NCBI RefSeq assembly: GCF_056746865.1
Contig: NZ_CM163382.1
DNA: 64,000 nt
Direction: 5' to 3' (one strand)
The translations under genes were made by a program, and so were the position numbers. The notes under the pieces are model-generated. The model saw nothing but the letters and a program-made list of their open reading frames with translations, was not told the DNA's origin and made no database searches. Positions 1 to 6,783 of the stretch are shown one piece after another. Position 1 is the stretch's first letter. Every line of letters begins with the position of its first letter.

Positions 1-171
1 TTGCAATGAAAATAACGCCCGCCTAGTATGTGCGCGTTTTCTTATTCCACAAACTGCAAGGAGGTAAATCATGACAAATCCTTTATCAATGACTCTTTGC
101 AGACCTTTCCAGGATTAATTCTTTTTTTCTTGCCCTGGATTCGTCTGCCATTTCCTGATTTTTATTCATAA

Positions 172-1323
172 ATGGAATGGTTTATGGGCAAATATATTCG
201 TCCCTTATCCGATGCGGTATTTACCATCGCATCTGATGACCTGTGGATCGAGAGTTTAGCGATCCAACAATTACACACCACGGCAAATTTACCCAACATG
301 CAGCGCGTAGTAGGGATGCCAGATTTACATCCCGGACGCGGCTACCCGATTGGCGCAGCGTTCTTCTCCGCAGGCCGTTTTTACCCGGCACTGGTCGGCA
401 ATGATATCGGCTGCGGCATGGCGCTATGGCAAACAGATATTCTCGCTCGCAAATACAACGCCGATAAGTTTGAAAAGCGATTATCAGCTTTGGATGACGT
501 TGCTGAAGAAAGCTGGCTGGAGGAAAACCTGCCGTCAGCATTTGCACAGCATCCGTGGCGCAGCTCGCTTGGCTCTATCGGTGGCGGAAACCACTTCGCA
601 GAACTGCAACAAGTTGATGAAATCATCGACGCTGAACTGTTTGCACTGGCAGGTCTGGATGCGCAGCATCTGCAACTGCTGGTTCATAGCGGCTCGAGGG
701 GGTTGGGGCAGTCTATTTTACAGCGGCATATTGCCTCGTTTTCGCATCATGGTTTGCCTGAAGGCAGTGACGACGCGCTACGGTATATTGCGGAACATGA
801 CGATGTGCTAGCGTTTGCGCGTATTAATCGCCAGATGATTGCTTTGCGCATAATGCAACAAGTTAAGGCCACCGGAAGTCCGGTTCTGGATGTGGCGCAT
901 AACTTTGTTAGCGCGTGCCAAATCGGCGATCAACAGGGTTGGTTGCATCGTAAAGGTGCCACGCCGGATGACAACGGTCTGGTGATTATTCCCGGTTCAC
1001 GCGGTGATTACTCCTGGCTTGTACAGCCTGTTGCGAACGAAAAAACGCTCCACTCGCTGGCGCATGGGGCAGGGCGTAAATGGGGGCGCACCGAGTGTAA
1101 AGGGCGTCTGGCAGCGAAATGCACGGCGACGCAACTCTCGCGTACTGAACTTGGCAGTCGGGTAATTTGTCGCGATAAACAACTCATCTTTGAAGAAGCG
1201 CCACAAGCCTATAAATCGGCTGAAAGCGTGGTGCAATGTCTGGTGCAAGCCGGTTTAATTATTCCTGTCGCGCGGCTGCGTCCGGTGCTAACGCTCAAAA
1301 ACAGTGGAGGGAAAAAAGGATGA
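172..1323 (+). CDS. RtcB-family RNA ligase paralog (RtcB2-type, linked to prfH); true start may be the ATG at 184
   Basis: 383 aa ORF with RtcB hallmark motifs ([27 protein letters not shown]); stop overlaps prfH start (ATGA at 1320-1323). Confidence 0.85.
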
Positions 1324-1934
1324 TCTTGCTACAACTCTCCTCAGCGCAGGGGCCGGAAGAATGTTGCCTCGCAGTGAAAAAGGCGCTGGACAGGTTGATT
1401 AAAGAAGCTACCCGACAAGACGTCGCGATAACGGTGCTGGAAACAGAAACGGGTCGCTACTCTGACACGTTGCGTTCAGCGCTGATTTCTCTGGATGGCG
1501 ATAACGCATGGGCATTAAGCGAAAGTTGGTGCGGCACTATCCAGTGGATTTGTCCGAGTCCGTATCGGCCTCATCATGGGCGCAAAAACTGGTTTCTGGG
1601 CATTGGGCGTTTTACTGCTGATGAGCAGGAACAATCGGATGCAATCCGTTATGAGACGCTGCGTTCGTCGGGGCCGGGCGGTCAACATGTCAATAAAACC
1701 GACTCGGCGGTACGCGCCACGCATCTGGCATCCGGGATTAGCGTGAAGGTTCAGTCAGAGCGCAGCCAACATGCCAACAAACGGCTGGCGCGATTGCTGA
1801 TTGCCTGGAAGCTGGAGCAACAGCAACAGGAAAATAGCGCGGCGCTGAAATCGCAGCGGCGAATGTTCCATCACCAGATTGAACGTGGCAACCCGCGACG
1901 AACGTTTACAGGGATGGCTTTTGTCGCTGTGTAA
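1320..1934 (+). CDS. prfH: peptide chain release factor homolog PrfH
   Basis: 204 aa; GGQ motif in [24 protein letters not shown] upstream of ATG at 1320; start overlaps upstream stop. Confidence 0.9.
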
Positions 1935-1995
1935 TTGAGGAATGTCTCCCGCCGTTTTCTATATGAAAGCGGCGGGAAAAACGAAAGGAATAGTC

Positions 1996-2505
1996 ATGTT
2001 TATCGGTCATCTTCCGGCTGGTTATTTAATAACTTGTACTTTAATGAAACGCTTGCCACTGATTGCTCGTCATGCGCGCTGGGCGATGGTTATTGGCTTA
2101 CTTGGGGCCGTTGCGCCCGATTTTGATCTTTTTTGGTGCTATCTGGTTGATAACGGGCAACGACATCATCATCTTTACCCGTCTCATTGGCCATTATTAT
2201 GGTTTGCTCTGCTGGCGGCGACATTAGTCTGGGCAGGAATTGCGAAGAATAAACTTCCGGCGTGGCTGGGCGTGGTGTTTTGCCTGAATAGTATCGCGCA
2301 TTTATTACTCGATACGCTGGTCGGTGATATCTGGTGGCTGATGCCTTTCGTTAACCAACCGTTTGCATTCTTTCATATTACGGCGGTACATCATCCGTGG
2401 TGGCTCAATTTTTTATTACACTGGTCGTTTTTACTGGAACTGGCATTAGTGGTTGCCGCCATTGCCATGTGGTGCAGGCGTAATGCCAAAATGGTAAATG
2501 CATGA
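1996..2505 (+). CDS. inner-membrane metal-dependent hydrolase family protein (YdjM/DUF457-like)
   Basis: 169 aa from ATG 1996 with AAAGGAA RBS; hydrophobic segments; conserved His/Asp motifs (GH, PDFD, HHHLYPSHW, HLLLD). Confidence 0.6.
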   Translation: MFIGHLPAGYLITCTLMKRLPLIARHARWAMVIGLLGAVAPDFDLFWCYLVDNGQRHHHLYPSHWPLLWFALLAATLVWAGIAKNKLPAWLGVVFCLNSIAHLLLDTLVGDIWWLMPFVNQPFAFFHITAVHHPWWLNFLLHWSFLLELALVVAAIAMWCRRNAKMVNA

Positions 2506-2521
2506 AAAAATTATTCTGACT

Positions 2522-2803
2522 TTAAGCGGCGTAACATGTTTCCTGGGGAAATTCTCCCGTGGTTAAGTATGCTCTCCTGACTTTGCCCCAGGCTCTGAAC
2601 ATATAAAATTTCTGCTTTTCACCCTTAAGTTCTTTCACGGATTCCAGCGCAAAACCTTCTTTGGTGATCAGAAATTCTCCCCATGAAATATGGTCGCAGC
2701 TATATAAATATGCGACCTTTTCATGAGTTTCATAATGTTTTGTTATTTCGATATAGATAGCCATTGGCTTCAAACAGTAGTCCACGCCCGCAGGCGTGGA
2801 CAT
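2522..2803 (-). CDS. hypothetical small protein (weak call)
   Basis: 93 aa ORF between YdjM-like gene and pepD; no clear RBS; predicted start lies inside a hairpin. Confidence 0.2.
   Translation of the reverse strand: MSTPAGVDYCLKPMAIYIEITKHYETHEKVAYLYSCDHISWGEFLITKEGFALESVKELKGEKQKFYMFRAWGKVRRAYLTTGEFPQETCYAA
2780..2801 (-). terminator. hairpin 11 nt downstream of pepD stop (9 bp stem gtccacgcc/ggcgtggac, 4 nt loop)
   Basis: perfect inverted repeat read directly; weak U-tract. Confidence 0.4.
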
Positions 2804-2811
2804 TATTGTAA

Positions 2812-4269
2812 TTACTTCGCCGGAATTTCTTTCAGCAGTTCAGTCAGTAGTGTCCAGTAATGACCTACGCTTTCGATGTGAACTTGCTCATCCGGAGAGT
2901 GTGGACCGGTGATGGTTGGCCCGATAGAAACCATGTCCATTTCCGGATACGGTTTTTTGAACAGACCACATTCCAGGCCCGCGTGGATAATCTGGATGTT
3001 CGGCGTCTTGTTGAACAGACGCTGATAAGTTTCACGTACCAGATGCATCACCGGAGAATTAGCGTCCGGCTGCCAGCCAGGATATGCGCCTTTCGCTTCG
3101 GTTTTCGCGCCAGCCAGTTTACCCAGCGAATCCAGCATGCTCACCACGTAGTCTTTACCGCTGTCGATCAGAGAACGGATCAGGCAGTGAATTTCTACGT
3201 TATTGTCAGTCATGGTCACCACACCGACGTTCAGGGAGGTTTCCACCACACCTTTTGCCACATCGGAATTGCGGATCACACCGTTCGGGGTGGCGTTCAG
3301 CAGACGAATAAAGGTATCGCGAGATTTCGCAATCAGGGCAGCTTTATCGTTCGCAACAGAGTCCAGCAGCAATGCCAGATTTTTCTCTTTCTCTGCCAGC
3401 TCGTTTTTCAGGATTTCCTGATAGGTATTCACCAGAGATTTCAGGGCGTCGACTTTATCAGCTGCGACAGCAATGGTCGCAAAGGCTTCACGCGGGATGG
3501 CGTTACGCAGTGTGCCACCGTTGAAATCGATAAGGCGCAGGTCCAGCTCTTCTGCATGACCCGCCAGGAAGCGCACCAGCAGTTTGTTGGCATTACCCAG
3601 GCCAACGTGGATTTCACCGCCGGAGTGACCGCCTTTTAGACCTTTTAAGGTTAACTTGAAGGTTTCAAAACCAGCTGGAACTGCTTCACGATCTAAATGC
3701 AGGTTGGAGGTGAAGTCGATACCCCCCGCGCAACCCATGTAGATTTCACCTTCCTCTTCGGAGTCGGTGTTAATCAGAATATCAGCCTGCAACCAGTTGC
3801 TCTGTAAGCCAAAAGCACCATCCATACCGGCTTCTTCGGTCATGGTCAGCAGCACTTCCAGCGGGCCGTGAACCACGTTTTCGTCAGCCAGAACCGCCAG
3901 CGCAGACGCCATACCAATGCCGTTATCCGCACCCAGCGTGGTGCCGCGCGCTTTAACCCATTCGCCATCAATATAAGGCTGGATAGGATCTTTAGTGAAG
4001 TCATGCACGGTGTCGTTATTTTTCTGCGGCACCATATCGAGGTGGGCCTGCAAGACGACCGGTTTACGATTTTCCATACCTGCGGTAGCAGGTTTACGAA
4101 TCAGGATATTACCTACCTGATCGCGTTCGACATGGAAACCTTTCTCTTTTGCCCAACCAACAATGTATTCAGCGAGTTGCTCTTCATGATAGGACGGGTG
4201 AGGAATAGAACAGATTTTGGCAAAAATATCCCACAGCGGCTGTGGAGATAATTGAGACAGTTCAGACAC
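2812..4269 (-). CDS. pepD: cytosol non-specific dipeptidase (aminoacyl-histidine dipeptidase) PepD
   Basis: 485 aa, recognisable PepD sequence (MSELSQLSPQPLWDIFAKICSIPHPSYHEE...). Confidence 0.96.
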   Translation of the reverse strand: MSELSQLSPQPLWDIFAKICSIPHPSYHEEQLAEYIVGWAKEKGFHVERDQVGNILIRKPATAGMENRKPVVLQAHLDMVPQKNNDTVHDFTKDPIQPYIDGEWVKARGTTLGADNGIGMASALAVLADENVVHGPLEVLLTMTEEAGMDGAFGLQSNWLQADILINTDSEEEGEIYMGCAGGIDFTSNLHLDREAVPAGFETFKLTLKGLKGGHSGGEIHVGLGNANKLLVRFLAGHAEELDLRLIDFNGGTLRNAIPREAFATIAVAADKVDALKSLVNTYQEILKNELAEKEKNLALLLDSVANDKAALIAKSRDTFIRLLNATPNGVIRNSDVAKGVVETSLNVGVVTMTDNNVEIHCLIRSLIDSGKDYVVSMLDSLGKLAGAKTEAKGAYPGWQPDANSPVMHLVRETYQRLFNKTPNIQIIHAGLECGLFKKPYPEMDMVSIGPTITGPHSPDEQVHIESVGHYWTLLTELLKEIPAK

Positions 4270-4529
4270 GTTAAGTCTCCTTGTCGATCACCCGCAAAAC
4301 AGTATTGCAGGTCACAGGGTTAGCAGAAAATGTTGTCAACACAAGACAGGCTTGCGAGATATGTTTGAGAATACCACTTTATCCCGCGTCAGGGAGAGGC
4401 AGTGCGTAAAAAGACGCGGACTCATGTGAAATACTGGTTTTTAGTGCGCCAGATCTCTATAATCTCGCGCAACCTATTTTCCCCTCGAACACTTTTTAAG
4501 CCGTAGATAAACAGGCTGGGACACTTCAC

Positions 4530-4988
4530 ATGAGCGAAAAATACATCGTCACCTGGGACATGTTGCAGATCCATGCACGTAAACTCGCAAGCCGACTGAT
4601 GCCTTCTGAACAATGGAAAGGCATTATTGCCGTAAGCCGTGGCGGTCTGGTACCGGGTGCGTTACTGGCGCGTGAACTGGGTATTCGTCATGTCGATACC
4701 GTTTGTATTTCCAGCTATGATCACGACAACCAGCGCGAGCTTAAAGTGCTAAAACGCGCAGAAGGCGATGGCGAAGGCTTCATCGTTATTGATGACCTGG
4801 TGGATACCGGTGGCACTGCGGTTGCGATTCGTGAAATGTATCCAAAAGCGCACTTTGTCACCATCTTCGCAAAACCGGCTGGTCGTCCGCTGGTTGATGA
4901 TTATGTTGTTGATATCCCGCAAGATACCTGGATCGAACAACCGTGGGATATGGGCGTCGTATTCGTCCCGCCAATCTCCGGTCGCTAA
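4530..4988 (+). CDS. gpt: xanthine-guanine phosphoribosyltransferase
   Basis: 152 aa, recognisable Gpt sequence; PRPP-binding motif [11 protein letters not shown]. Confidence 0.97.
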
Positions 4989-4994
4989 TCTTTT

Positions 4995-5027
4995 CAACGC
5001 CTGGCACTGCCGGGCGTTGTTCTTTTT
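4995..5027 (+). terminator. rho-independent terminator of gpt
   Basis: stem caacgcc...ggcgttg followed by ttcttttt. Confidence 0.6.
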
Positions 5028-5079
5028 AACTTCAGGCAGGTTACAATAGTTTCCAGTAAGTATTCTGGAGGCTGCATCC

Positions 5080-6324
5080 ATGACACAGGCAAACCTGAGC
5101 GAAACCCTGTTCAAACCCCGCTTTAAACATCCTGAAACCTCGACGCTAGTTCGCCGCTTTAATCACGGCGCACAACCGCCTGTGCAGTCGGCCCTTGATG
5201 GTAAAACCATCCCTCACTGGTATCGCATGATTAACCGTCTGATGTGGATCTGGCGCGGCATTGACCCACGTGAAATCCTCGACGTCCAGGCACGTATTGT
5301 GATGAGCGATGCCGAACGTACCGACGATGATTTATACGATACGGTGATTGGCTACCGTGGTGGCAACTGGATTTATGAGTGGGCCACCCAGGCGATGGTG
5401 TGGCAACAAAAAGCCTGTGCGGAAGAAGATCCGCAACTCAGTGGTCGTCACTGGCTGCATGCGGCTACGTTGTACAACATTGCCGCCTATCCTCATCTGA
5501 AAGGAGATGACCTGGCCGAGCAAGCGCAGGCTTTGTCAAACCGCGCCTATGAAGAGGCCGCTCAGCGTCTGCCGGGCACCATGCGGCAGATGGAGTTTAC
5601 CGTACCCGGCGGTGCGCCCATCACCGGCTTTTTGCATATGCCGAAAGGCGATGGCCCGTTCCCGACAGTATTAATGTGTGGTGGTCTGGATGCGATGCAG
5701 ACGGACTATTACAGCCTGTATGAACGTTATTTTGCGCCGCGCGGCATTGCGATGCTGACTATTGATATGCCGTCGGTGGGCTTTTCTTCAAAATGGAAGC
5801 TCACCCAGGACTCCAGCCTGTTGCATCAGCACGTCTTAAAGGCGCTGCCTAACGTACCGTGGGTAGATCACACTCGCGTCGCGGCCTTTGGTTTCCGTTT
5901 CGGCGCTAACGTTGCCGTGCGTCTGGCATACCTTGAATCGCCGCGTCTGAAAGCGGTTGCCTGTCTTGGTCCGGTAGTTCATACCCTGTTGAGTGATTTT
6001 AAGTGCCAGCAACAGGTGCCGGAAATGTATCTTGACGTTCTGGCGAGTCGTTTGGGTATGCATGATGCTTCCGACGAAGCGTTACGCGTGGAGTTGAATC
6101 GCTATTCATTAAAAGTGCAAGGATTGCTGGGACGTCGTTGCCCAACGCCAATGTTATCAGGCTACTGGAAGAACGATCCGTTCAGCCCGGAAGAGGACTC
6201 ACGCTTAATCACCTCATCAACTGCTGACGGTAAATTGTTAGAGATCCCATTTAACCCGGTGTATCGGAATTTTGACAAAGGTCTTCAGGAAATCACCGAC
6301 TGGATCGAAAAACGATTGTGTTAA
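5080..6324 (+). CDS. frsA: fermentation/respiration switch protein FrsA (alpha/beta hydrolase)
   Basis: 414 aa; recognised sequence and conserved position between gpt and crl. Confidence 0.93.

Positions 6325-6783
<459 letters not shown>

Follow-up and report, generated by a model that had tools for sequence, protein, structure and literature searches.

The window analysed here is a 64,000-nucleotide (nt) stretch of an Escherichia coli chromosome (contig NZ_CM163382.1, assembly GCF_056746865.1) that covers the yafP–pepD interval; it begins just past yafP and continues through pepD, gpt, frsA and onward. Its first genes, rtcB2 and prfH, encode the RtcB2-PrfH ribosome rescue-and-repair module and are followed by a gene for a YdjM-family (PF04307) integral-membrane putative metal-dependent hydrolase, hereafter the hydrolase. 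All three genes are intact and lie on the + strand. A sequence-only reading of this DNA had proposed the hydrolase gene as a possible third member of the rtcB2-prfH operon. Our analysis favours another explanation, to which we give a probability of roughly 0.85: the hydrolase is a separate neighbour, gained and lost independently of the pair, and has no functional part in the repair system. The useful result is a negative one, in that annotation and further work should treat the YdjM-like gene apart from the repair operon.

Most intact rtcB2-prfH pairs in E. coli lack the hydrolase

The pair was searched for in 5,426 complete E. coli genomes and counted when at least 80% of it was present. It was found in 2,674 genomes, a count drawn, like those that follow, from a clonal population whose members are not phylogenetically independent. 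The hydrolase segment was detected in 328 of the 5,426 genomes and was missing from 94%. Pair and hydrolase were contiguous in 327 of the 2,674 pair-bearing genomes, and 88% of intact pairs had no hydrolase; strain EC958 of sequence type 131 (ST131), with the order rtcB-prfH-pepD, is one of these. An ST131 origin of the window had been considered and was rejected on this absence of the hydrolase from EC958.

Alignment of hydrolase-plus and hydrolase-minus alleles indicated that most E. coli have, in place of a polymorphic segment of the window (about 1923-2808), a spacer of 56 nt that contains another hairpin. This segment comprises the last prfH codons, a hairpin, the hydrolase gene, a small open reading frame (ORF) and the likely pepD terminator, and the breakpoint of the indel falls in the last prfH codons.

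Pair and hydrolase occur in all four combinations at one enterobacterial slot

Other species were covered by a PrfH-centred scan of species-representative genomes, for which 80 of at least 328 confirmed loci were kept. The scan gave 79 loci, 66 of which encode a clear PrfH, and in 53 of these 66 an RtcB-family ORF abuts prfH. With a hidden Markov model specific for the hydrolase subfamily, a homologue was found within 6 kb of one of the 53 rtcB-prfH pairs (Superficieibacter electus); the other 52 were without it. Elsewhere, the co-directional genes immediately following prfH encoded tetratricopeptide repeat (TPR) proteins, an RNA ligase (Serratia silvae), a phosphatase or a PcfJ-like protein, and a YdjM gene was never found directly after prfH among these followers in the other taxa of the scan.

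At one and the same chromosomal slot, Enterobacteriaceae have both pair and hydrolase, either one alone, or neither, so that all four combinations occur. The order dinB-(yafP)-rtcB-prfH-hydrolase-pepD was seen in three enteric taxa, namely the taxon of locus L005 (72% identity), Superficieibacter (66%) and E. albertii. Klebsiella aerogenes carries dinB-yafP-hydrolase-pepD in the same slot with no pair, and in Citrobacter sp. FP75 the pair adjoins pepD with no hydrolase. Further afield, seven non-enteric homologues of the hydrolase (45-56% identity; Halopseudomonas, two from Pseudomonas, Alcanivorax, Aromatoleum, Thiodiazotropha and one more) sit in unrelated gene neighbourhoods.

The proposal of a third operon member therefore fails on co-occurrence: the hydrolase accompanies 327 of 2,674 pairs in E. 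coli and 1 of 53 in other species, and K. aerogenes and seven non-enteric contexts have it with no pair. The sequence-only reading had suggested an analysis of gene-neighbourhood conservation and had named a lack of co-occurrence across genomes as a finding that would speak against it; no conserved co-occurrence of pair and hydrolase was found across genomes. Together, these distributions are what would be expected if pair and hydrolase had been gained and lost independently at the slot.

The pair matches the published two-gene repair module

The rtcB2 gene (184..1323, + strand) encodes a 379-amino-acid (aa) RNA ligase of the PrfH-associated RtcB subfamily, in agreement with the RefSeq annotation. 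Its product matched the NCBIfam models NF007153 (637.7 bits, cut-off 407) and TIGR03073 release_rtcB (616 bits, cut-off 271.8) as well as Pfam RtcB. The prfH gene (1320..1934, + strand) encodes release factor homologue H (204 aa), which matched the TIGR03072 release_prfH equivalog with 328.8 bits (cut-off 166.65). The product has the architecture of a PrfH-type protein, with domains 2-4 only, no N-terminal domain and a GGQ motif, here in the form GPGGQ with Q122 present. The catalytic His294 of RtcB2 (379-aa numbering) is present as well; these two residues are those mutated in the published inactive controls, the RtcB mutation being H294N (PMC9304027). As in the described module, rtcB lies directly 5' of prfH on the same strand, with stop and start overlapping in an ATGA (1320-1323).

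The sequence-only reading had correctly described both genes as full length with this overlap. It had placed the beginning of the pair at 172, the earliest ATG of the rtcB ORF (383 aa); the gene call stands, and the start does not. The true start is probably 184, which gives 379 aa and makes the ATG at 172 12 nt too early, since three lines of evidence agree on it: the RefSeq starts in near-identical strains, the NCBIfam profile alignment, which begins at residue 5 of the 383-aa ORF, and the MGK/MGN N-termini of RtcB conserved in other genera.

The literature link to ribosome rescue and ribosomal RNA (rRNA) repair, cited in the sequence-only reading, is well founded. The first description of rtcB-prfH as an operon of two genes dates from 2006 (Baranov et al., PMC1586002), and the RtcB2-PrfH rescue-and-repair module was reported by Tian et al. 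2022 (PMC9304027) and Maviza et al. 2022 (PMC9223846). When colicin E3 has cleaved the 16S rRNA within the decoding centre, PrfH frees the peptide from the damaged ribosome and RtcB2 re-ligates the rRNA; in vivo, cells that have the pair are protected (PMC9304027, PMC9223846, PMC13166195). Rescue and re-ligation of colicin E3-cleaved ribosomes were shown with near-identical E. coli proteins (PMC9304027, PMC9223846). By analogy, PrfH of the window strain would recognise a 70S ribosome stalled by a cut in the 16S decoding centre, made by colicin E3 or by rRNases of the CdiA-CT type, and release the nascent chain; RtcB2 would then re-ligate the 2',3'-cyclic-phosphate and 5'-OH ends of the 16S rRNA.

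On these matches, positions 184..1934 carry the known two-gene RtcB2-PrfH module of E. coli in intact form, with the same two genes, the same chromosomal locus and the same stop/start overlap. Two differences were noted, neither of them functionally relevant. The window haplotype has an extra downstream segment, and its PrfH ends in …AFVAV as opposed to …AFIEG in hydrolase-less alleles; the C-terminus differs in the last two residues because the indel breakpoint falls within the last prfH codons. Compared with E. coli PrfH as seen in its structure on a damaged ribosome (PDB 7SA4), the window protein shows 3 differences over 202 aligned residues (E = 2.3e-135). The alignment extends only up to residue 202 of 204, which suggests that the characterised PrfH has the C-terminus of the hydrolase-less alleles.

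K-12 carries only remnants of the pair, as the sequence-only reading had noted. K-12-type genomes such as NCM3722 and MC1061 matched 42% of the pair, in two pieces, and were without the hydrolase segment; the K-12 state corresponds to a deletion of about 1 kb across both rtcB and prfH (PMC1586002, PMC9304027). Roughly half of the complete E. coli genomes contain an intact pair, and its presence in a non-K-12 strain is to be expected. When supplied on a plasmid without further genes, rtcB2-prfH makes K-12 BW25113 and MG1655 resistant again to colicin E3 or E3-like toxins, and the two proteins suffice for repair in vitro (PMC9223846, PMC9304027). The hydrolase is not required for the repair function, since the pair alone protects these K-12 hosts, which lack it (PMC9223846, PMC9304027). 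In the PrfH literature that we searched, a third gene was not mentioned. The pair is, in short, an already known and mechanistically understood ribosome-repair system.

The spacer between prfH and the hydrolase gene and possible co-transcription

The hydrolase gene (1996..2505, + strand; 169 aa) starts 61 nt past the prfH stop on the same strand, at the position given in the sequence-only reading, and is preceded by a Shine-Dalgarno sequence (AAGGA, 1985-1989) 6 nt upstream of the start. Its N-terminus, MFIGHLPAGY, is conserved across genera, and this conservation ruled out an in-frame ATG at 1942 as the start.

Between the two genes lies a hairpin (1947..1977, + strand) with a 13-bp stem and a 5-nt loop, followed by A-rich sequence with no U-tract. 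It appears in the minimum free energy structure of its 86-nt context (-27.6 kcal/mol, z = -2.98). The hairpin is unique in the window and not a repeated element, and a search of positions 1..6500 gave no Rfam match to it at E <= 1. It could serve as a 5' stabiliser, a processing site or a partial terminator. The hydrolase genes of E. coli, E. albertii and K. aerogenes are all preceded by a conserved copy, with 2 compensatory pairs, in a comparison of four sequences only, three of them close. The E. albertii copy (locus L097, 5809-5839, - strand) keeps the stem and differs in the loop; in locus L009 the hairpin lies at about 4945-4975. In K. aerogenes the gene upstream of the hairpin is yafP and not prfH. 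Because the hairpin is conserved next to the hydrolase even where yafP replaces prfH, these four sequences suggest that hairpin, Shine-Dalgarno sequence and gene form a unit belonging to the hydrolase. The hairpin would then travel with the hydrolase rather than with prfH.

The sequence-only reading had named a strong terminator together with an independent promoter in this spacer as evidence that would separate the hydrolase from the pair. The spacer holds the stable hairpin, no U-tract and no good sigma-70 match. A promoter candidate picked by eye (TTTACA-N19-TGTAAT, 1904-1934) was set aside because its spacer is poor and its -10 hexamer does not have the important A in second position. Read-through from rtcB2-prfH into the hydrolase gene is plausible because no canonical terminator separates them, and in the window strain the hydrolase may receive such transcription passively.

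Several observations weigh against treating the hydrolase as an independent neighbour. A consensus scan of the prfH–hydrolase spacer found no intrinsic terminator and no good sigma-70 promoter, and the simplest transcription model for the window strain would be a three-gene transcript. Pair and hydrolase are kept together in three enteric genera. In E. coli, 327 of the 328 hydrolase carriers have an intact pair, a pattern that resembles an association. For the hydrolase itself no solved relative was found by sequence or by fold, and we wholly infer its function. Finally, the spacers of hydrolase-less E. coli and Citrobacter resemble each other in the core of their hairpin, CGCCATCCGGCA. Given this likeness, losses and gains may have differed in direction and number from the simplest course, and the history of the slot may be more complex.

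These observations could be accommodated by a lineage-specific three-gene operon, in which the hydrolase would be co-transcribed with the pair and serve the same defence in Escherichia, Superficieibacter and those relatives that have all three genes. For example, it might counter imported nuclease toxins at the inner membrane or remove the products of ribosome damage. The common strand, the 61-nt gap and the lack of both a U-tract terminator and a promoter call fit such an operon, as does the adjacency of the three genes in E. coli, E. albertii, Superficieibacter and a third enteric taxon, together with the intact pair of the E. coli hydrolase carriers. We nevertheless regard it as unlikely. 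The hydrolase is absent from 88% of the intact pairs of E. coli and from 52 of the 53 pairs of other species, K. aerogenes keeps it in the same slot and behind the same hairpin with no pair, and it has a Shine-Dalgarno sequence of its own. The pair alone restores toxin resistance in K-12 (PMC9223846, PMC9304027). As for the linkage within E. coli, it is explained by adjacency and clonality: 327 of 328 is equally predicted by full physical linkage, if two deletions lying less than 100 bp from each other arose one after the other in a clonal species. Since nearby sequential deletions in such a species give the same pattern, the presence of the pair in hydrolase carriers is not evidence of selection.

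The hydrolase is a conserved gene under purifying selection

The family assignment made in the sequence-only reading holds. The hydrolase matched Pfam PF04307 (YdjM) with 35.4 bits over residues 3-156 of 169 (gathering threshold 29), and the homologues found (394) have a precomputed PF04307 assignment; no NCBIfam model matched the protein. RefSeq labels the gene 'metal-dependent hydrolase' in near-identical strains. An alignment of 63 homologues contained 23 invariant residues, including a His/Asp/Glu cluster (H5, D42, D44, D52, H58, H59, H64, H102, D106, H142 and E148 are invariant). The AlphaFold2 model, with a mean confidence score (pLDDT) of 88.5, is all-helical with six helices; the protein has long hydrophobic helices and hydrophobic 19-residue windows. 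From these features, the product is most likely an inner-membrane, divalent-metal-binding hydrolase of a membrane-associated substrate. It would be a multi-pass PF04307 protein displaying the His/Asp/Glu cluster and translated from its own ribosome-binding site.

The ratio of nonsynonymous to synonymous substitution rates (dN/dS) of the hydrolase gene was 0.28 in a comparison with a second E. coli allele, 0.19 with the E. albertii gene and 0.10-0.12 with those of two other genera (the L005 taxon and Superficieibacter), similar to that of rtcB (0.11). Protein identities within the same loci were 66-72% for the hydrolase, 74-77% for RtcB, 77-82% for PrfH and 81-82% for FrsA. On these values and its invariant residues, the hydrolase gene is a real functional gene under purifying selection. 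Its divergence tracks that of the flanking genes, which points to vertical descent. Because the hydrolase is also found in E. albertii and other genera, we infer an old origin for the arrangement with the hydrolase and a loss of the gene in most E. coli. The hydrolase would be a long-standing resident of the dinB/yafP-pepD interval of Enterobacteriaceae, maintained by purifying selection, and most E. coli would have come to carry the short replacement spacer in place of the hydrolase and the adjacent small ORF.

The ORF might instead be a decaying relic, without function and merely not yet deleted in the window lineage. Its absence from 94% of E. coli genomes is in keeping with decay, and none of the other long genes at the locus reaches its dN/dS within E. 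coli (0.28). We consider this extremely improbable, given that the frame is intact in all of the at least 325 carriers sampled and across four genera, that dN/dS against E. albertii, the L005 enteric taxon and Superficieibacter is 0.10-0.19, that 23 residues including the His/Asp/Glu cluster are invariant across the homologues and that the AlphaFold2 model is confident. The idea of a pseudogene was rejected on dN/dS and residue conservation.

The archetype of PF04307 is E. coli K-12 YdjM, an inner-membrane putative hydrolase regulated by SOS/LexA, and dinB-yafNOP, just upstream of the locus, is an SOS operon. Similarly to YdjM, the window hydrolase scores above the Pfam threshold, is of similar size, is a multi-helix membrane protein and has conserved His/Asp residues. 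Unlike YdjM, it lies at another locus with no LexA box upstream, and at only 35 bits it is a distant paralogue. It falls into a distinct subfamily with members in Pseudomonas, Alcanivorax, Aromatoleum and others (45-56% identity). LexA/SOS control had been considered by analogy with ydjM and the nearby dinB-yafNOP and was rejected: no LexA box (CTGT-N8-ACAG-like, at least 7 of 8 core positions) was found upstream of the hydrolase gene or of rtcB, the only match lying inside rtcB at 635. The remaining interest of the gene is that it represents an uncharacterised, widely distributed and selectively maintained subfamily of membrane proteins with conserved His/Asp residues and no structural relatives.

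A small ORF beside the hydrolase resembles an orphan Rhs immunity gene

Next to the hydrolase gene, on the opposite strand, lies a small hypothetical ORF (2522..2803, - strand) annotated as 93 aa. Its true start is probably the internal Met at 2764, giving 80 aa; the E. albertii form has 80 aa, and the 5' end of the 93-aa annotation overlaps the likely pepD terminator, a GC-rich hairpin of 9 bp just past the pepD stop (2780..2801, - strand) that forms a terminator-like site on both strands. The small ORF had no match in Pfam, NCBIfam, PADLOC or PDB. Its homologues (at 5001-5243 in loci L100-L102 and at 5001-5243 in L097) are confined to Escherichia, apart from one 56%-identical Salmonella protein. 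The gene for the latter is located 10 nt past a full-length Rhs toxin gene, or past an orphan fragment of 167 aa whose sequence is the same as that of the Rhs C-terminus.

The Salmonella homologue thus occupies the classic immunity position of Rhs toxin/RhsI pairs, and the small size and narrow distribution of the family are also reminiscent of such pairs. In contrast to them, the window has no Rhs or other toxin gene adjacent to the small ORF. By this analogy the small ORF resembles, at most, an orphan Rhs immunity gene, and as a probable orphan of this type beside the hydrolase it holds a modest residual interest. The C-terminal toxin domain of the Salmonella Rhs protein matched nothing in Pfam or PDB and belongs to no known family. 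A 171-aa ORF beside the small ORF in E. albertii is unrelated to the Salmonella Rhs toxin.

This ORF bears on two further readings of the locus. In one, rtcB2-prfH, the hydrolase gene and the Rhs-immunity-like ORF would make up a small anti-toxin islet in a minority Escherichia haplotype, with the hydrolase co-transcribed and giving membrane-level protection against imported nuclease toxins. We judge this quite improbable; if true, it would provide the first assigned function for the PF04307 family.

In the other, which strikes us as very doubtful, the hydrolase gene and the small ORF would be what is left of a degraded toxin-immunity or defence islet by pepD, and the hydrolase a membrane-level factor unrelated to ribosome repair. 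The only homologue of the small ORF outside Escherichia is encoded immediately behind Rhs toxins or orphan Rhs C-terminal fragments, the segment is polymorphic in its presence, and the non-enteric hydrolase homologues are often found among small hypothetical, VapBC/TumE, putAbiC, nSTAND and integrase genes. However, other homologues of the hydrolase sit in housekeeping contexts, and in Superficieibacter, K. aerogenes and the third enteric taxon the hydrolase occurs without the small ORF. Its divergence, which tracks that of the core flanking genes, indicates vertical descent and not a mobile islet. The window contains no toxin gene, and neither the hydrolase nor the small ORF had a PADLOC match, with PHROGs giving only matches at E >= 0.04.

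Flanking regions and related loci

The convergent pepD gene (2812..4269, - strand) flanks the polymorphic segment and marks the conserved chromosomal slot. On the other side, no clear terminator was found between yafP and rtcB. In E. coli MS 198-1 an IS1 element is inserted between these two genes (locus L004, 3242-3939, equivalent to about 1-183 of the window); apart from IS1, this strain is identical to the window over 4.3 kb. The insertion could alter rtcB2-prfH expression. A second presence/absence polymorphism in the dinB–yafP–pepD interval concerns the toxin-antitoxin pair yafN-yafO, located between dinB and yafP: it is present in some E. coli only (HE302, locus L003, and EC958, locus L106, were compared) and is also missing in other genera (L005, L009).

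Among the matches of the rtcB-prfH query in E. coli genomes, 15 partial ones fall on records labelled as plasmid. In E. albertii (locus L097, 5839-7588) the gene caller gave an rtcB of 405 aa and a prfH of 166 aa next to an intact hydrolase gene, which suggests that the stop/start junction is disrupted there by a frameshift or a lost stop.

Two kinds of gene that follow prfH in other taxa were recorded. Five Bacteroidota loci (L049, L053, L054, L057 and L060), four from Flavobacteriaceae and one from a Saccharicrinis metagenome-assembled genome (L054), carry a TPR-repeat gene of 171-183 aa on the same strand, 4-136 nt past prfH. In these loci RtcB is absent or 0.9-4.8 kb away, and the TPR-repeat protein may be a lineage-specific PrfH partner. 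In Serratia silvae (locus L035, 6633-7379) a gene of the PF09414 RNA_ligase family lies 15 nt past prfH on the same strand, so that this rtcB-prfH cluster holds a second, unrelated RNA ligase.

One of the non-enteric homologues of the hydrolase, in Pseudomonas sp. NCHU5208 (locus L090, 1-8501), is part of a block of 12 genes and about 7.8 kb between sbcD and sbcC, which consists mostly of small, poorly characterised genes (SUFU-like, DUF4288, DUF4336, acetyltransferase and GGDEF).

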